From a virus, in the UHGV virus genome UHGV-1607176: a stretch of 11,799 nucleotides of DNA. One strand, given 5' to 3'. Below the pieces are notes generated by a model that saw only the letters and a program-made list of their open reading frames with translations, was not told the origin of the DNA and did no database searches. Within the stretch, counting starts at the first letter, position 1, and each line of letters opens with the position of its first letter. Of the stretch, positions 1 through 7,202 are shown piece by piece. The translations under genes and the position numbers were made by a program.

Positions 1-1
1 T

Positions 2-1273
2 TACTGTACCGTCGTAGTCCTTATCGAAATTCGTTATACGGCGCATACGGGCGCGGAAACGCGATGCCGTAGGCAACTGCCCGTAGATAGACGTACCGAC
101 GTAATCCGTGCTATTACCAGTAATCGTAGCCTGTACCGTGTAGATATCGCTCAACGGGTTGCGTTGAGAATCAATCATCTGGTACTGGAGTTCTACGGTT
201 ACGCTGGTGCGGTTATAGCCGCCGTCGTATTTGTAGAGGCCGTTCTGCCCTGCAACGTTAACGAGCACACGATCAACTTCTCCTCGCACCATGTAGTACC
301 AGTCCGTAAGAGATACGTCATAGGTGTTGCTTGGGCCTATAAACGTATCCGAACGCTCTGTAAGTGCGTAAGTCTCTCCGTTATTAAGGTTGCCCCAGTT
401 ACCTATATCCCCGACGTACAACCGAACCTCAAAGTCGTCGACGTATAAAACTTCAAACGAGCCGTTTAGGTTAGTGACGTCCTTAACGTCGAAATTGCTT
501 AACACTGCGACATCACCAACACTAAGAAACTCAGAAAAAGCAGAGTCACCCGACGGGTCATATAGGTAGCCGGTGGTCGAAATACGTTTGGCGGTTCCAC
601 CGGAGCTTGGGTTAGCCCCAATGTCGTTTGGCGCTTTGAGCACAATACCGTCAACGTCGTCATTGGAGTACGTCACATAGAGCTTCTGATCAATGACGTC
701 GCCGATTTGTACCTGCGGCGATGTGGTGTTGTTCGGTGACGTATACGGCGCGTACACGGCAACAGAGGAACCTGTGATGTCGCTTATCAGGGTGTCGCCT
801 TCCGTGACGCCATCGGCCTCAATATACAGATGTCCGCGCCCGGCGTCGTAGTACGAATACTCCAGCAAAGCACCAGTGGAGTTGAACGCTTTATACGTCT
901 GCATAAGGTCGTTAGGGATTGTCTGCACAGTCCCGCAGATGTCATAAGAGCGCTCGTAAGGGCGTGGTTTGTTTGAGCGGTCCGTGAGGCTGTTATTTGG
1001 CGATGTTGTCTGGTTGTTAGTCGCCGTATAGTTGGCGTTTGCGGACATGTTCAGGCCAAACAACTTAGCGATTGGCTTAAGGATAAAACCAAATACCTTA
1101 CTAACTGCACCAAGCGCCCCGCTACCCGCACCCTCAATAATATGGTACACGGCGTCTTCGTCTTTAAGCGCTTCGAAGTCGTCTGTAACATCAGTATCAT
1201 CGCCAATCTCGCCGAGGTAGACGCGCACAGGCACACCGTCCGGAATACGGCTAACAACAAACTCCATCGGCAT
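2..1273 (-). CDS. Tail-tip / host-specificity protein, 5' part only (3' end lies beyond the left window edge). A gpI-like N-terminal segment is followed in the same frame by a lambda gpJ-like N-terminal region.
   Basis: Manual minus-strand translation in codon phase 3k+2 is open from 1342 down to position 2 with no stop. It is absent from the ORF track because its stop is outside the window. First ATG is at 1273..1271 (alternative 1267..1265). Translation begins MPMEFVVSRIPDGVPVRVYLGEIGDD...DAVYHIIEGAGSGALGAVSKVFGF, continues through an internal Met (1048..1046, MSANANYTATNNQ...), and at the window edge reads ...IYGQLPTASRFRARMRRITNFDKDYDGTV. That last segment resembles the conserved G-LP...F-IRMRRMT segment of the lambda J N-terminal domain, recalled from memory. 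Position directly after the gpK-like gene fits. Confidence 0.6.
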   Translation of the reverse strand, partial: MPMEFVVSRIPDGVPVRVYLGEIGDDTDVTDDFEALKDEDAVYHIIEGAGSGALGAVSKVFGFILKPIAKLFGLNMSANANYTATNNQTTSPNNSLTDRSNKPRPYERSYDICGTVQTIPNDLMQTYKAFNSTGALLEYSYYDAGRGHLYIEADGVTEGDTLISDITGSSVAVYAPYTSPNNTTSPQVQIGDVIDQKLYVTYSNDDVDGIVLKAPNDIGANPSSGGTAKRISTTGYLYDPSGDSAFSEFLSVGDVAVLSNFDVKDVTNLNGSFEVLYVDDFEVRLYVGDIGNWGNLNNGETYALTERSDTFIGPSNTYDVSLTDWYYMVRGEVDRVLVNVAGQNGLYKYDGGYNRTSVTVELQYQMIDSQRNPLSDIYTVQATITGNSTDYVGTSIYGQLPTASRFRARMRRITNFDKDYDGTV

Positions 1274-1329
1274 CCCGACGTGTTTTGTACGGTCGAAAGC
1301 GCCATCAGCGTTTCGCGAGTAGTGCAGGA

Positions 1330-1695
1330 TTATCGCCAAAATTCAATCTCCGTGTACGTGTCTCTGAGGTCCGCCAGCCTGTCAAGCCGTACCTGGCGGG
1401 ATGCAAGCTCGCAATGACTCACCATCCCGTCGAAGTAAACTCCCGCATGCCACACGATACGACCCCCGCGGCGATAACCCATAAGCACCGCGCAGAAGTT
1501 TTCAGGCTTATCAATTTTTGTAAGCCCCTTCGTGTCACGGCGGCCTTCGTCAAACGCTTCGTTAATTGCCGTTGGGCTTGTAACGTCGAACGCAGGGGTT
1601 TCTAACCCGGCATCCGCGCGGACAATGCGCACGTGATGCCAGCAATTGCGTTTGCGAAAGTCGTAAGGTATGCCCGTGTAGTCGTTAATATTCAT
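1330..1695 (-). CDS. NlpC/P60-family tail protein (equivalent to the C-terminal peptidase domain of lambda gpK)
   Basis: 121-aa ORF with ATG start. Cys...His...His arrangement (RNCWHHV ... VWHAGVYFDGMVSHCE) is typical of the NlpC/P60 papain-like fold. Sits between the gpL-like gene and the gpI/J-like gene. Its start overlaps the upstream stop (ATGA). Confidence 0.6.
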   Translation of the reverse strand: MNINDYTGIPYDFRKRNCWHHVRIVRADAGLETPAFDVTSPTAINEAFDEGRRDTKGLTKIDKPENFCAVLMGYRRGGRIVWHAGVYFDGMVSHCELASRQVRLDRLADLRDTYTEIEFWR

Positions 1696-2207
1696 GTGGT
1701 CAACAGGCCGCGTAATAACGGTATCTCTTTAGGTGTCATCAGTATACCAGTGCTTCGTTGGTTCAGCATAGGTGTACCGACATCTGCGGAAAACTCGCCT
1801 TTCTCCTGATTGATGGCCTGTAACTCGTACACGACAGGGCCGTCCGCAGGATAAGACAGGTCGGTGCCGACGTAACGGCGGAATACAAACTTCGGCAACT
1901 CGGTGTTACTCATCGGGATTTTATCCATCTCATCATCAAGTTGATTGAGAATATCCGGTAGTGTAAACGTCGTCGTCTGGTCCATATCGCTGTTGTTAGC
2001 GGCCCCGGACGCCTCCATCGGGGTGGGTTCGAATGTTATTGTTTCGCCTGTCTCCAGTGTTGCCGTAAGTTCCTGCAGCCCGCGCACAAGATAATACGTC
2101 TTTGACAGCAACGGGTGGCTGATTTGCAACGTGATATAGTCCATCTCGCCGTCGGGGTTTGAGGCCAGCTTACGTCGATAGGCTGCTTCTACTGATTCCT
2201 GGCTCAT
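1692..2207 (-). CDS. Minor tail protein, gpL-like by position (weak sequence support)
   Basis: The track ORF 1692..2225 begins at a TTG (plus-strand caa at 2223-2225). The first ATG is at 2207..2205 and overlaps the stop of the upstream gene (ATGA), so that start is preferred. Segment FVFRRYVG loosely resembles a gpL motif. No C-terminal Cys cluster. Lies between gpM-like and gpK-like genes. Confidence 0.4.
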   Translation of the reverse strand: MSQESVEAAYRRKLASNPDGEMDYITLQISHPLLSKTYYLVRGLQELTATLETGETITFEPTPMEASGAANNSDMDQTTTFTLPDILNQLDDEMDKIPMSNTELPKFVFRRYVGTDLSYPADGPVVYELQAINQEKGEFSADVGTPMLNQRSTGILMTPKEIPLLRGLLTT

Positions 2208-2707
2208 GATTGCATAGGGTCCCAAATTCGTGGAAACGTTGATTGTGCGGTTCCATAGGCTTTAAGGAAACATCCCAGCCCATCGCCATAGCAACCGTAC
2301 AAATCCGGAAGATTGTTAATCAGGCACTGGTTCTCAAGGTCCTGGAACGGCGATTTCTCGGCGGTTGCCGTGAAGGTAATTGTCCAGTTAATCCCGTCTT
2401 CGGTGGACTCGGCGATAGTGGACGTAATGGTTACCTGATAATCTTCGATGCCCATGCCGAAGTCGTGCGCCATCCAGAAACTTGACGCACCGCCGTCTAC
2501 TTTTTCGAGGAACGACAGAAACGCCTGTCGCCCCATTGCGGATGTAATCAGGGTTACGCTCACCGGGAACACGTCGTAATACGTGTCGCGCCCCTGACGT
2601 ACACCGCCACCAGCTAAATCAACGCTCCAGACGTTGTTACGTCTGGTCATCGAGTAGCCTTTCGATACAATTGGCTTAAGGCTACGTGGGAAATATAAGT
2701 CGCTCAT
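2204..2707 (-). CDS. Minor tail protein, lambda gpM-like
   Basis: 167-aa ORF immediately downstream of the tape measure gene (start overlaps the TMP stop). Segment YYDVFPVSVTLITSAMGRQAFLSFLEKVDGGASSFWMAHDF resembles the gpM core pattern SVTLS...FLE..GG..SF-W, recalled from memory. Confidence 0.55.
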   Translation of the reverse strand: MSDLYFPRSLKPIVSKGYSMTRRNNVWSVDLAGGGVRQGRDTYYDVFPVSVTLITSAMGRQAFLSFLEKVDGGASSFWMAHDFGMGIEDYQVTITSTIAESTEDGINWTITFTATAEKSPFQDLENQCLINNLPDLYGCYGDGLGCFLKAYGTAQSTFPRIWDPMQS

Positions 2708-4725
2708 TATTTGAACCCCGGCGCGTTTCTTGTGGCCTTGCGAGCCTTGCTAATCTTACTGTTGCTGTTCTGCAAAGACGCGGCAACCTGTTCTTCAATG
2801 ATGATACGCAAACGGCCCTCATCATCTTGCTCAGTGGATACGTTGCCGATTTGAGAACTCGTGTTGTTTACGATAGTAACATTAGATGGGCCACTATTTC
2901 CGCTATTATTACCGTTTAACTGCTGCCGTGTTTGACTTGCATTGGTCGCCCTGCCAGAACCCGCCATCTTGATAATCTCAGGGCCGCGTTCACCAACCAG
3001 GTAACTACCGCCAGCGTTCATTTGCCCGCCTTGCTCACGCGCGCCGCTAATCTTGGCGATGTTCGCCACCCCCGCCGCGACAGCCAGACCCGCGGCAACC
3101 GGAGCGAGTGCCGGGCCGACAATTGGAATAGCAGCAGTTGATTTATAGGCTTCGATAGCAGCCGTGTAAGTGGCAATAGTCGCTTGCGTTATGGCGAACG
3201 CTTTGTACGCAGCGGACGTCTCCCCCAGTGCGGATTTAGCATCCGCTGCCATGCTGCCGAATGCGTCGGCGGTGGCGTTGGCTTGTGCAATATTGCTCTG
3301 TTCGTTCAGGTTACGCACTGCATTAGCGTATTCTTCTTCGCTGATTAGTTTCTGTTTAAGGAAATCGTCCAGTTGCTTAAGTTTGGCGTCATTCTGCCGT
3401 TGGATTTCCTCGAACTCTGTGCCACCAAGCGCCTGTAGTTTCTCCAGATATGCATCAGCATTGTTATACAGCGCATCTCGTTGTGCCTGAAACTCCGCCA
3501 TGATGTCACTTTTCGACTTCTCGTAGTCAGCGTCGCTTACGAGTTGCTTGTCGTGGAACTCCTGCAATTTAGCCAGTTTCTGTTTCTCTTTGGCGTCTAT
3601 CCGTTCTAACTCTGTTCCGGTGTTTGTGTCTATTTGAGCTATAAACTGGTCTGCGGCTTTCTGTGCGCTTTCCTGCGCGCGAGCGTCGGCGCGGGCTTGA
3701 GCATCTGCTCGTTTCTTAGCTGCGGCAGCGATACGATTCTGCCTGTCTATTTCCTTCTGTGCCCTGTCCGCCTTATCCTTTTCATACGTCTTCTCAGATT
3801 GCTCTACCCCTTTTCGCTCGGCTGCGCGGGTCTTTTCCTCCACACCAAGGTAGTTAAGTTCATTTCGCAGTTTATTTATTTCCATCTGCGCTTCTGGCGT
3901 TTTGGCGTTTATGCCGTCCAGGTAGGCGACCAGCCCTTCTCGAGCTCCAGGAACCCCAGCTGCGATTGCTTTCTGAGCAACTTCAATACTGCGTAACTCT
4001 TTGGCGGTCAACCCCGCAGCTTCCGCAGCGGATTCGTACTGGAAAGCCACGGCCCCGGCAGCGTCCCCGCCTTGGGCTATCTGTGATGCGGCAAGGTTGG
4101 TGGTCAACTTCTGAAACAGAGATTGGGCTTTTGTTACCTTATCAATAGCTTCAACAATCTTATCTGCGGTGGAGTTAGCCTGTATGGCGGTTGCCTCTAG
4201 TGCCTTATTAAGAAATGCCATCTTCTCCGCTGTTGTTGCCCCGACAGCGTCCAGTTTTTCCAGTGCGTCATTCATGTCATACACACCGGGTGTGGCCTCA
4301 TTAAGAGCGTCATCAAGGAACTTAGTAGCTTCCTCCAGTTGTTTAGCGGTATCCGTTGAGTTACTCAAAGACGCGTACAGCGCGCCGCCGATTACGGTGG
4401 CGATAGTCAATACCGTGCCCGCAATTGGATTGAATGCGGACACTAACTGACTACCTTGTTGCGTGAAAGCCGTGAGGGCGGACTGCCCCCCTTGGATTTG
4501 TACGATAAAGTCCTGTACCTGATACCCAGCATTACCTATTGACGCCCGCATCGCGTTCATCTTCGGGGTTGCCGCGGAGGTGGTGTCCGTTAGTTTCTTT
4601 GTGCTGGAATCCGCTTTCCCAGCGGAACTACTAAGGTTATCTAACTGCTTTGCTGCTTGCTCCGCTCCAGTTGCCTGGACTCGCACCATTAAACTCGCGG
4701 TATCAGCCATTATAATCGTCCTCAT
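2707..4725 (-). CDS. Tail tape measure protein
   Basis: 672-aa ORF, the largest in the window. Ala/Gln/Lys/Glu-rich coiled-coil-like central region. C-terminal GGSYLVGERGPEII-type motif typical of tape measure proteins. Canonical position after the chaperone pair and before gpM-like. Possible alternative start at 4710 (MADTASL). Confidence 0.85.
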   Translation of the reverse strand: MRTIIMADTASLMVRVQATGAEQAAKQLDNLSSSAGKADSSTKKLTDTTSAATPKMNAMRASIGNAGYQVQDFIVQIQGGQSALTAFTQQGSQLVSAFNPIAGTVLTIATVIGGALYASLSNSTDTAKQLEEATKFLDDALNEATPGVYDMNDALEKLDAVGATTAEKMAFLNKALEATAIQANSTADKIVEAIDKVTKAQSLFQKLTTNLAASQIAQGGDAAGAVAFQYESAAEAAGLTAKELRSIEVAQKAIAAGVPGAREGLVAYLDGINAKTPEAQMEINKLRNELNYLGVEEKTRAAERKGVEQSEKTYEKDKADRAQKEIDRQNRIAAAAKKRADAQARADARAQESAQKAADQFIAQIDTNTGTELERIDAKEKQKLAKLQEFHDKQLVSDADYEKSKSDIMAEFQAQRDALYNNADAYLEKLQALGGTEFEEIQRQNDAKLKQLDDFLKQKLISEEEYANAVRNLNEQSNIAQANATADAFGSMAADAKSALGETSAAYKAFAITQATIATYTAAIEAYKSTAAIPIVGPALAPVAAGLAVAAGVANIAKISGAREQGGQMNAGGSYLVGERGPEIIKMAGSGRATNASQTRQQLNGNNSGNSGPSNVTIVNNTSSQIGNVSTEQDDEGRLRIIIEEQVAASLQNSNSKISKARKATRNAPGFK

Positions 4726-4972
4726 TACGGCCTTCGAACAGTGCGTCTAGGCCCATTATTAAGTCTACCTCAAGCAACGAGAACGGCTGTTTATGCAACT
4801 CTGCGTACGCTGTAAGGTGGTGATATTGGAGCATTTCCCTTGGTATTAGCACATTATTGCGGCTTACAAACTTCAATGCGTAGTATTTATCCATTATTTT
4901 CATCATATCGCTCGGGCATTCCGGCGGGGTTTCCTCAGGCTCCTTCGGTACAGGTAACCCCATAGCCGCCAT
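4703..4972 (-). CDS. Tail assembly chaperone, gpT-like segment (possibly made as a -1 frameshift extension of the upstream chaperone)
   Basis: 89-aa ORF between the gpG-like gene and the TMP. Its reading frame is -1 relative to the upstream gene and stays open across the 89-nt gap back into the last about 7 codons of that gene. Weak ribosome-binding site before its own ATG. Confidence 0.45.
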   Translation of the reverse strand: MAAMGLPVPKEPEETPPECPSDMMKIMDKYYALKFVSRNNVLIPREMLQYHHLTAYAELHKQPFSLLEVDLIMGLDALFEGRNEDDYNG

Positions 4973-5061
4973 AGCGGCCTTGTGCCCGTCGGCGATGGAG
5001 TCGAACTCACGTCTCCTTTGCCGTATAACCCAGCGATACCTCGCATATTCGTAAAGCGCTT

Positions 5062-5478
5062 CTACTTTACAGATAAAGCTTTGCGGCTCTCAGCATGGTG
5101 TTGAGCGACAGCCCCTCCCAACCCTTTATACTCCTTCAACAGCTTGACCAACGCTTTCTTAGTGAACTTCTCCTCGAAGGACCACCCTACAACAACAACG
5201 GCAGCAAGTGCATCGTTAAGTTTAGCCAATTCACTGTTTAATTCCGTGTTATAGCGCGCCCAGTCCCCTTTCTCGCGGCACTCCGCGTCGAGCGGTTTCA
5301 GGCGGTCAAGGATGTCGCGGTAAGCGGAGATAAAATCCTTAGCTGCGGCGATTGAGTCGTCGCAGTCAGGCCCCATCACCTGCAACCACTCCCCTGAGTC
5401 ACTGCCGTCCGGTAGCAGGATAGGCATCTTAGTTCCCGCAGCGTGGCGGGACGCGAAATAAAAATCAGAAAGTTTCAT
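5062..5478 (-). CDS. Tail assembly chaperone (gpG-like)
   Basis: 138-aa ORF immediately upstream of the T-like ORF and TMP. AAGGA ribosome-binding site 8 nt upstream of the ATG. Assignment is by position and size class only. Confidence 0.5.
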   Translation of the reverse strand: MKLSDFYFASRHAAGTKMPILLPDGSDSGEWLQVMGPDCDDSIAAAKDFISAYRDILDRLKPLDAECREKGDWARYNTELNSELAKLNDALAAVVVVGWSFEEKFTKKALVKLLKEYKGLGGAVAQHHAESRKALSVK

Positions 5479-5571
5479 TCTTTAATCCTTTGGTTAAGAG
5501 GTTGTTGGTTAAAGAGAAATGCACCAGGCGGTAACCAACCGCTTTTCGTGCGCGACACTAGGTGCAAAATT

Positions 5572-5601
5572 ATTCTAACACACTACTTGCACACCCCAAT
5601 A
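5572..5601 (-). promoter_or_regulatory. Candidate extended -10 promoter for the minus-strand tail genes downstream of the island
   Basis: On the minus strand: TGtTAGAAT (reverse complement of plus 5572-5580), with a poor -35 (ATTGGG region). It is positioned to restart transcription of the chaperone/TMP genes after the terminator at 8131-8150. Sequence-only prediction. Confidence 0.3.
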
Positions 5602-5615
5602 TAATAGGGTACTAT
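5587..5615 (+). promoter_or_regulatory. Candidate sigma70 promoter driving the plus-strand island
   Basis: TTGCAC (5587-5592), 17-nt spacer, TACTAT (5610-5615), about 40 nt upstream of the first island ORF. A TATAAT at 5600-5605 overlaps but has no good -35. Confidence 0.35.
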
Positions 5616-5655
5616 TCACTTACACCAACGTTATTAACTTAAATAAGGAATTAAA

Positions 5656-5982
5656 ATGCGTAAATTAATCATAGCCATGGGTCTTATTTCTTTTTGCGCG
5701 GTAGGGTCCCAGTGTGAGCAAGTATATAGTGAAACCCCTTTAGTAACTTCCGGGGTGCTTGATTCAGCCCCTCCGTCTGCCGTTAGTGCGTTTAAAACCG
5801 CTGCTATTCGCGAATGTAATGCTGCCGTGCGCGCTGGCGGGTCTGGCCTTGGTCTTGAATTGATGACATCCCTTGTTGTTGAGTCTGTAGATGTTAACAG
5901 CCCCACTTTCAGCAGCCTACTGTTAGCCACTCGTTTGCAAATGGTTACAACCGGATGGTCAATAGGCGCAGAAAGTAAATAG
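5656..5982 (+). CDS. Small exported protein of unknown function (108 aa, N-terminal signal peptide)
   Basis: Strong ribosome-binding site (AAGGAA 6 nt before ATG). N-terminus MRKLIIAMGLISFCAVGSQC has a basic n-region, hydrophobic core and an A-V-G cleavage-type site. Not a canonical lipobox. Mature part is Ala/Ser/Val-rich with two Cys. Confidence 0.6.
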   Translation: MRKLIIAMGLISFCAVGSQCEQVYSETPLVTSGVLDSAPPSAVSAFKTAAIRECNAAVRAGGSGLGLELMTSLVVESVDVNSPTFSSLLLATRLQMVTTGWSIGAESK

Positions 5983-6047
5983 TTGCCTTTATTTAAAGGA
6001 ATGCACTGTGGTTAAATAGGACAAATCCTAAACACGAGGAAATAGGC

Positions 6048-7202
6048 ATGGCCCAGAAGAAAATAACCGACGAACAGTTACAGGAAGAATTGAACGCTGG
6101 GATGAAGAATATCGACATTGCTCGTAAATACGGCATCTCAGACCGCGTTATTCGTATCCGTAAAGCGAAACTAGCGAAGAAAGGCGTAGGCCACGGGCGT
6201 GACGTTAGCCACCTTGTGCCGGACGGCTACAAGATTAAGGGTACATCGTCTCTGGTTGATGAGTTAGGCAACACTAAACTGCAATGGGTTAAGACCGACA
6301 CCGATGCGGAACGTCAGGTCGAGTTAATGAAAGCCGTTGTGGACGAGATGAAAAAAGATTTACCCAAGTATAAGCCAGTCACTTTGGCCAAAAATGGGAC
6401 AGATGACGACTTATTAAATCTTTACACAATAACAGACCATCACATAGGGATGTTGGCGTGTCAAGAAGAAGGCGGGGATGATTACGACACCACAATCGCG
6501 GAATCTCTCGCGGTTGACTGGTTCAACAGTGCGGTTTGTATGAGTCCACAGAGTGGTGAATGTATCATTAACTTCTTAGGGGACCAAATGCACAACGACG
6601 GCATGAAGGCAATGACCCCTATGAGCGGTCATATTCTTTCAGCGGATAGTCGCCTGTTTAAAATGATACGCACGGCCATTAAGGTTATCAAGCTGGCTGT
6701 CTCACTGTGCTTGCGAAAACACAAGAAGGTTAAACTTCTTATCTGTGAAGGTAACCACGACCTTAGTTCTTCTCTGTGGCTCCGGGAGATGTTCTACGAG
6801 GTATACACAAATGAGCCTCGCGTCGAGGTTAACCGGGAGGTGTCACCGTATTATGCGTACAAGTTCGGGGATTGTATGATTTCAGCACATCACGGGCATT
6901 GTTCTAACTTTGCTAAGGTAGAGCAGGCTATAATCGGTAAGTACCGGGAGATGTACGGGCGGTGTAAGTTCACATATGTCCATACGGGGCACCTCCATCA
7001 CAGGGCGGTTAAAGAGACTAATCTGCTAATTGTTGAGCAACACCAGACATTAGCGGCTAAAGATGAGTATTCTAGTAAGGGCGGCTATTATTCAGGTAGA
7101 AGCGCAAATGTGATTACATACCACAAACGTTACGGGGAGGTGTCCCGCATAAGTATACCTGTCGAAATGCTGCGAGACATAAACCCAAAATCGACATACT
7201 AA
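6048..7202 (+). CDS. HTH domain fused to a calcineurin-like metallophosphoesterase (predicted phosphodiesterase/nuclease)
   Basis: 384-aa ORF with GAGGAA ribosome-binding site. N-terminal about 45 aa is helix-turn-helix-like (NIDIARKYGISDRVIRIRKAKL). It carries the full ordered metallophosphoesterase motif set: DHH (6435-6443), GDQMHNDG (6579-6602), GNHD (6750-6761), HHGH (6888-6899), GHLHH (6987-7001). Confidence 0.8.
   Translation: MAQKKITDEQLQEELNAGMKNIDIARKYGISDRVIRIRKAKLAKKGVGHGRDVSHLVPDGYKIKGTSSLVDELGNTKLQWVKTDTDAERQVELMKAVVDEMKKDLPKYKPVTLAKNGTDDDLLNLYTITDHHIGMLACQEEGGDDYDTTIAESLAVDWFNSAVCMSPQSGECIINFLGDQMHNDGMKAMTPMSGHILSADSRLFKMIRTAIKVIKLAVSLCLRKHKKVKLLICEGNHDLSSSLWLREMFYEVYTNEPRVEVNREVSPYYAYKFGDCMISAHHGHCSNFAKVEQAIIGKYREMYGRCKFTYVHTGHLHHRAVKETNLLIVEQHQTLAAKDEYSSKGGYYSGRSANVITYHKRYGEVSRISIPVEMLRDINPKSTY

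Follow-up and report, generated by a model that had tools for sequence, protein, structure and literature searches.

Whether the tail-tip hub protein and a counterpart of the lambda tail protein gpI are made as one polypeptide or as two is the question raised by the left end of an 11,799-nt stretch of the UHGV virus genome UHGV-1607176 (hereafter, the window). An annotation drawn from the sequence alone (the original prediction) had read a minus-strand frame, 2..1342, as a gpI-like segment that continues into a gpJ-like host-specificity protein, had contrasted this with the separate I and J genes of lambda, and had left a choice between an I-J fusion and a J protein started at an internal ATG. 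Megablast of window 1-4800 against GenBank phages (171 records) assigned the window to a Kagunavirus (Guernseyvirinae), a K1-type coliphage, and its closest GenBank relatives were the K1-specific phages BUCT825, K1H and K1G, with 91-95% identity across window 1-2892. The explanation we prefer, and hold to be fairly likely, is a one-gene Kagunavirus trimeric hub protein whose N-terminal module is a covalently attached counterpart of lambda gpI.

A single hub gene with a conserved TTG start

Re-translation of 2..1342 bore out the claim of an uninterrupted frame: its 447 codons contained no stop, an outcome with a chance of about (61/64)^447 = 5e-10 in random sequence. The frame opens at 1342 because an in-frame TGA (1345..1343) lies directly upstream. 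All of the strings quoted in the original prediction were located, namely VRVYLGEIG, AVYHIIEGAGSG, the internal Met at 1048..1046 and RMRR. The first start codon of the hub frame is a TTG at 1339..1337, which overlaps the preceding K-like gene, ending in TAA at 1332..1330, by 10 nt. The N-terminal segment begins at this TTG ('MAIILHYSRN...') and not at the ATGs at 1273 and 1267; numbered from it, the internal Met is residue 98.

Orthologous loci were compared by taking 80 related IMG/VR loci with 50-97% protein identity, of which 78 were usable and 76 sequences supplied the residue columns. One continuous open reading frame (ORF) was kept, starting at a conserved TTG with a Shine-Dalgarno sequence. 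The hub ORF was 843-865 aa long in nearly all complete loci, and no interruption near the proposed I/J junction was found among the 78. The GenBank records of K1H and BUCT825 each contain a single 851-aa 'tail protein' whose start is the equivalent of the window TTG at 1339. A GGAG, AGGA or GAGG preceded the start by 4-12 nt (mostly 8-9) in 75/78 loci, and the 10-nt overlap of the hub start with the K stop (TTG-GCN-NTA-A) recurred in 67/78. The conserved TTG, the Shine-Dalgarno sequence within the K-like gene and the fixed overlap therefore suggest selected, coupled, low-level translation of a virion protein present in three copies. The weak TTG start was kept in ~70/78 related loci, down to ~50% protein identity.

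The other option of the original prediction, a J protein started at the ATG at 1048, was rejected because Met98 is not conserved (T22/Q14/V12 of 76 in that column), no Shine-Dalgarno sequence was found before this ATG or before those at 1273 and 1267, and residues 1-23, which precede the first ATG, are conserved (H6, G13 and F15 among others) in relatives down to 24-34% identity. A single polypeptide of the I-J type is supported by the 851-aa annotations, by the continuous ORF across the 78 loci and by the single chain of gp14 of the Shigella siphophage Sf11 ('Baseplate hub 2 protein', PDB 9OCC chain E; J Virol 2025), a homologue with an alike N-terminal layout. The match of Sf11 gp14 to the hub protein had a phmmer E of 1.5e-25 in two stretches (32-245 and 527-832), and a profile of the N-terminal 225 aa matched Sf11 gp14 residues 64-189 with E=3.5e-9. 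In the virion, Sf11 gp14 is present in three copies, and its model is a single chain that spans the junction (residues 81-827; J Virol 2025). It differs from the hub protein in being ~14-25% identical, and its first 80 residues are unmodelled.

A one-chain hub is not an anomaly but the normal and previously described arrangement for this phage group. Fusions of I to J (TAPI-TAPJ), with a K homologue that has the NlpC/P60 domain only, were reported from sequence profiles in 'some prophages', and the same operon type also encodes a beta-strand-rich protein 'Z' (Iyer et al. 2006, Genome Biol 7:R60). In the window, the 167-aa protein (2204-2707) or the DUF1833 protein (1692-2225) would be a candidate for 'Z'. 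The window resembles these fusions in having a ubiquitin-like domain of the tail assembly protein I (TAPI) type at the N-terminus of J, and its 121-aa K-like protein, with a Cys/His/His pattern, no JAB domain and a weak match to the NlpC/P60 half of lambda K, may correspond to their K homologue. Membership of the Guernseyvirinae/Sf11-type domain in the same sequence family could not be confirmed. Of the contrast drawn earlier with lambda, the single ORF held and its supposed unusualness did not, since the arrangement is universal in this group of phages and fusions of I to J had been on record since 2006. The fusion itself is real, ordinary and already known, and adds modestly to what had been reported. 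The annotation of this gene is settled as one hub protein from the TTG, without an I/J split, and the general picture of siphophage tail tips is unchanged.

Five of the related loci had shorter ORFs, and in four of them frameshifts at about residues 264, 381, 620 and 661 were followed by resumption of homology in another frame. The frameshifted hub genes in these public relatives are those of L013, L030 (IMGVR_UViG_641201315_000001, 4001-6557), L058 and L059. The family phrog_31307 (276 positions) was considered as a real, separate N-terminal gene and this is unlikely: all short ORFs were frameshifts or truncated. As judged from sequence, the phrog_31307 'tail protein' could plausibly derive from the 273-aa frameshifted ORF of L030, in which case the family would be an artefact of annotation.

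Architecture of the N-terminal module

The N-terminal 112 residues were modelled with AlphaFold2 from a 16-sequence alignment. Residues 1-70 were modelled as a ubiquitin-like beta-grasp with a predicted local distance difference test (pLDDT) score of 88-95, and the predicted order of elements was strand 2-9, strand 15-22, helix 24-31, strand 38-42, short helix 55-58 and strand 64-69. The model continued with a low-confidence Gly-rich stretch and a helix at residues 80-94. At its end (residues 69-74, nt 1118-1135) the beta-grasp carries the conserved sequence E-[GS]-[AP]-G-[GS]-G, in which G72 and G74 are invariant.

The hydrophobicity of the helix varied among relatives. The maximum 19-residue Kyte-Doolittle value was 1.36 here, compared with a median of 2.44 in distant members (56/74 at least 1.6) and 1.78 in lambda gpI. 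Beyond a variable linker comes a near-invariant motif (residues 108-149), most columns of which were identical in 76/76 sequences. This motif was kept across a superfamily of 750-1459-aa proteins, and it aligned with a part of Sf11 gp14 (residues ~100-140) that the virion model includes. Candidates for its equivalent are the C-terminal plug/strand region of gpI and the N-terminal strand of J.

Relationship of the N-terminal module to lambda gpI

The gpI protein has been described as a ThiS/MoaD-like beta-grasp domain with a conserved C-terminal Gly, followed by a Gly-rich linker and a small C-terminal domain (Iyer et al. 2006, Genome Biol 7:R60). Cryo-electron microscopy (cryo-EM) of lambda placed three gpI in the tip, with the N-domain not resolved. 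[quoted passage not shown] Lambda gpI and the module of the window have in common an N-terminal beta-grasp (predicted here) ending in a conserved Gly, a trait of gpI/TAPI proteins, and a position in the gene order between K and the J hub domains. A helix and a conserved motif come next and may be the equivalents of the hydrophobic helices of gpI and of its short segment in contact with the J hub, the helix being amphipathic here and the matches to gpI co-linear and marginal. A stand-alone gene of ~200 aa between K and J, as gpI has, is absent, the segment being fused to J, and no separate gene I was found in the genomes or cassettes inspected (K1H, BUCT825 and distant loci). Lambda differs in having a JAB domain in K and, as product of its own gene I, a 223-aa protein with two Gly/Ala-rich helices, whereas this phage has the module fused to J, one amphipathic helix and a 121-aa K without JAB. 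The N-domain is invisible in the virion maps of both lambda gpI and Sf11 gp14.

Sequence comparison was less favorable. PF06805 (Lambda_tail_I), an 83-position model that covers the ubiquitin-like part of lambda gpI (residues 14-97), did not match the window N-terminus at E<=10 or any of 69 superfamily members at E<=1; lambda gpI itself, as a control, scored 1e-28. Neither Pfam nor NCBIfam matched the N-terminal 107-202 residues, even at E<=10, and BLASTP against lambda gpI returned just an 'AVYHI..GAGSG' patch (11/24, E=1.1). For profile comparison, the gpI family was built from 13 sequences, including 12 diverse gpI genes from GenBank phages, and the J N-terminus family was likewise taken from GenBank phages; the 80 loci from an IMG/VR scan with lambda gpI, at 99-100% identity to lambda, had been unfit for a profile. 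Comparisons of the superfamily N-terminus with these families by hhalign were non-significant throughout: P=0.35 for the ubiquitin-like domain against that of gpI, P=0.31 for the motif against the gpI C-terminus and P=0.6 against the J N-terminus. The best hhalign result was a co-linear segment comprising the helix end, L-x-P and the motif (P=0.006, probability 6%). A gpI hidden Markov model (HMM) gave co-linear matches to some superfamily members with a maximum of 10.7 bits. The hmmsearch matches between gpI and the superfamily were marginal in both directions, and much of their signal was compositional, as locally shuffled controls reached 9.8 bits and reversed controls 4.7.

The original description of the segment as gpI-like thus stood as to fold, domain order and gene position and fell short of demonstrable sequence homology. 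The hub protein is translated from the conserved TTG with its own Shine-Dalgarno sequence, overlapping the K-like stop, as a single chain made up of a predicted 74-residue beta-grasp with its Gly motif, a predicted helix, a variable linker, an invariant ~40-residue motif and lambda-J-type hub domains. [quoted passage not shown] The beta-grasp may then be a domain for assembly or an accessory role, held by a flexible tether and for that reason missing from cryo-EM maps. Such a tether matches the gpI N-domain in lambda and residues 1-80 of Sf11 gp14, both of which are unseen.

Related hub proteins place this reading in context. Jersey gp32, from the Salmonella phage that is the Guernseyvirinae prototype, is the orthologous hub protein and was modelled with AlphaFold in the phage LSH1 paper (CSBJ 2026), which saw an N-terminal domain, called it 'problematic' and did not link it to gpI. 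The position in the lumen in that model is where lambda gpI lies. In the text of the Sf11 paper that was searched, no comment on gp14 residues 1-80 and no mention of gpI was found, and neither paper appears to have explicitly interpreted the N-terminal module of Guernseyvirinae and Sf11 as a beta-grasp module of the gpI type. T5 pb3, likened here by description, is a precedent for a plug within a hub polypeptide; it differs in that the plug is inside the HDII-insertion and not N-terminal, and no beta-grasp has been described. The gpI equivalence gives a plausible identity to a domain left unexplained in both Sf11 gp14 (residues 1-80) and Jersey gp32 (the 'problematic' domain). If it is true, tail-tip models of Guernseyvirinae, Sf11 and chi-type phages should put the helix under the tape measure, within the lumen of the hub, and a single device would exist in two versions, split as in lambda L/I/J or fused as here.

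Alternative explanations

The beta-grasp and tether may instead have no relation to gpI and be an appendage specific to the lineage, a small domain below or beside the hub that might act as a short fibre or touch the cell surface and that lies at the 5' end of the J gene by chance; this we hold to be doubtful, if worth serious attention. Two points weigh here against the gpI equivalence: homology to gpI is unproven, no significant sequence link having been obtained, and in Guernseyvirinae the helix is amphipathic and not transmembrane-like. An unrelated appendage would not explain why the order of elements and the gene position are those of gpI in a cassette that has no separate gene I, nor why distant members have a transmembrane-like helix, as gpI does, and the weak gpI HMM matches are consistently co-linear. 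The earlier I-J fusions with a JAB-less K, and the N-domains that are unresolved in lambda gpI and Sf11 gp14 alike, also speak for gpI.

Cleavage offers another account, unlikely in our judgment, in which the fusion is a precursor, the beta-grasp is cut off at the Gly motif (residues 69-74), possibly by the K-like papain-fold peptidase, and mature J begins at about residue 75. The conserved E-[GS]-[AP]-G-[GS]-G directly after the beta-grasp is consistent with such a site, as is the proposal that ubiquitin-like TAPI is processed at its C-terminal Gly (Iyer et al., Genome Biol 7:R60); moreover, the Sf11 gp14 model starts at residue 81, and a conserved Cys/His/His peptidase-like gene lies directly upstream with translational overlap. 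However, there is direct evidence of cleavage for no member of the group and flexibility explains the missing density equally well, Iyer et al. assigned the cutting to JAB, which is absent here, and only one Gly is well conserved in the wider superfamily. A combination of the two ideas, which we regard as improbable, is that the module of the whole superfamily is an ancestral, covalent gpI whose ubiquitin-like domain would be cut off at the Gly motif during tail-tip assembly, the NlpC/P60-type K translated along with it being the peptidase, and whose helix would be left as lumen plug and membrane-inserting element. If that were true, ubiquitin-style processing would take place in tail morphogenesis without a JAB peptidase.

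That the locus makes two products, with J from the ATG at 1048 or from 1273/1267 and the upstream part either a separate small protein or untranslated, is very improbable. These ATGs are in frame, and the database entries P0003 and P0006 start at a 'MEF/MNF' Met; against this stand the codon and Shine-Dalgarno evidence given above, the conservation of residues 1-23 in distant relatives, the need of the beta-grasp for strands 2-9 and 15-22, and the lack of any stop codon to end an upstream product. An assembly or sequencing artefact, by which a frameshift or missed stop merged two genes, is scarcely credible: hub-gene frameshifts do occur in a few public relatives, but they are scattered and far from the junction with homology resuming in another frame, more than 70 independent genomes or contigs have the same continuous ORF, and the cryo-EM model of the homologue is unbroken at the junction.

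Distribution of the module

When 1.84 billion representatives were searched exhaustively with HMMER, the N-domain profile detected 72 proteins at E<=1e-3. Almost all of these were 750-1459 aa long and had the domain at residues 1-115. Common to all were the beta-grasp, the motif 'SPNN.L..R.N..R...RIPDI[FY]G' and, between them, a hydrophobic helix. By comparison, a first word-indexed search with a 107-aa query had returned two fragments only, and a longer query and a profile few sequences. Matches of 165-211 aa were considered as stand-alone gpI-like proteins and rejected, being truncated fragments that continue into hub sequence. Two distant loci (L176 and L177) keep the gene cassette, consisting of the tail assembly chaperone, the tape measure protein, a ~160-aa protein, the DUF1833 protein, a ~120-aa K-like protein and the hub.

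Because Pfam lacks a model for the module, which is found in the hubs of many uncultured phages, the definition of a family would improve annotation. Within the set of uncultured-phage hub proteins P0031-P0095, Pfam matches were few and weak, and none was to the N-terminal module.

The J-type hub region

The RMRR that the original prediction took as a J-type motif (nt 49..38) was confirmed as such, BLASTP aligning it with 'FNIRMRRMT' of lambda J. Alignment to J profiles gave a clear hub match by three routes. BLASTP aligned K1H residues 330-762 with lambda J 86-533 (E=3e-6), the TipJ-related NCBIfam model NF040662 matched the K1H orthologue over residues 354-831 (E=1e-112), and Foldseek with the AlphaFold2 model of the 446 residues encoded in the window returned 9OCC_E as the best match (E=1.9e-8), followed by lambda gpJ chains. 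The part within the window holds the FNIII-A region only, with a Pfam FNIII-A_GpJ match of E=2e-4 that is under the curated cut-off.

Residues ~240-330 (nt 350-622) form a beta-rich insertion that was modelled with a pLDDT of 85-95 and probably corresponds to the Ig-like 'HDII-ins3' of Jersey gp32, a domain proposed as a possible antireceptor (LSH1 paper, CSBJ 2026). The insertion has no counterpart in lambda J.

The K-like neighbor and the tail module

The 121-aa K-like protein has an invariant C18, H83 and H94. It aligned co-linearly with lambda K residues 60-151, the NlpC/P60 half, in a weak hhalign match (E=0.004, probability 9%), and no sequence match was found in Pfam, NCBIfam or PDB. 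A short K-like gene also precedes the hub in distant relatives, where the Cys/His/His pattern is kept. On these sequence features the protein is probably an NlpC/P60-type cysteine peptidase without JAB/MPN; at 121 aa it is too short to contain a JAB domain.

The features of the hub gene and of the tail module are collected in Table 1. The 167-aa protein is presumably the distal tail protein, and the DUF1833 protein is the gpL-like hub-1 protein, which is C-terminally truncated in phage Jersey (LSH1 paper, CSBJ 2026). The equivalent of the tail assembly chaperone pair in K1H is annotated as a joined programmed-frameshift product.

Table 1. Hub gene segments and neighboring tail genes in the UHGV-1607176 window.
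Feature	Position (nt)	Strand	Remarks
Hub gene, 5' part	2..1339	minus	446 codons, running off the left window edge; 851 aa in close relatives
TTG start of hub gene	1337..1339	minus	TTG at aligned residue 1 in ~70/78 related loci
Shine-Dalgarno sequence GGAG	1348..1351	minus	8 nt before the TTG, within the 3' end of the K-like gene
Ubiquitin-like (beta-grasp) domain	1118..1339	minus	residues 1-74
Helix segment after Gly motif	1052..1117	minus	residues 75-96; amphipathic here (K81, K88, K92)
Variable linker	1019..1051	minus	residues 97-107; contains internal ATG 1048..1046
Near-invariant motif	893..1018	minus	residues 108-149; N.Q..SPNNSLTDR.NK.RPYER.YDICG.VQ.IP..LM..Y
J-type hub region	2..892	minus	residues 150-446; beta-rich insertion and FNIII-A(GpJ)-like domain
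K-like gene	1330..1695	minus	121 aa; phrog_329, E=6e-12
DUF1833 protein	1692-2225	minus	177 aa; no lambda-type Pfam match
167-aa protein	2204-2707	minus	phrog_384 match; no lambda-type Pfam match
Tape measure protein	2707-4725	minus	
Tail assembly chaperone (Phage_TAC_18)	4703-4972	minus	
Tail assembly chaperone (Phage_TAC_4)	5062-5478	minus	

Nucleotide similarity to all close relatives ends at ~2892, within the tape measure gene, and is lacking in window 2893-4800. The tape measure protein has 672 aa here compared with 757-770 aa in BUCT825/K1H, and that of the distant contig L176 also has 672 aa. The end of similarity and the shorter tape measure protein therefore mark this part of the tail module as mosaic or divergent.

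A gpI-type gene was also noted in Burkholderia phage phiBtTUL1a (OR360541.1, L166 in the comparison), where an intact ORF is readable in one frame at 391-988. The record instead gives a pair of small hypothetical proteins, together with a 'host specificity protein J' whose start falls within the gpI-type ORF; this is probably a misannotation.

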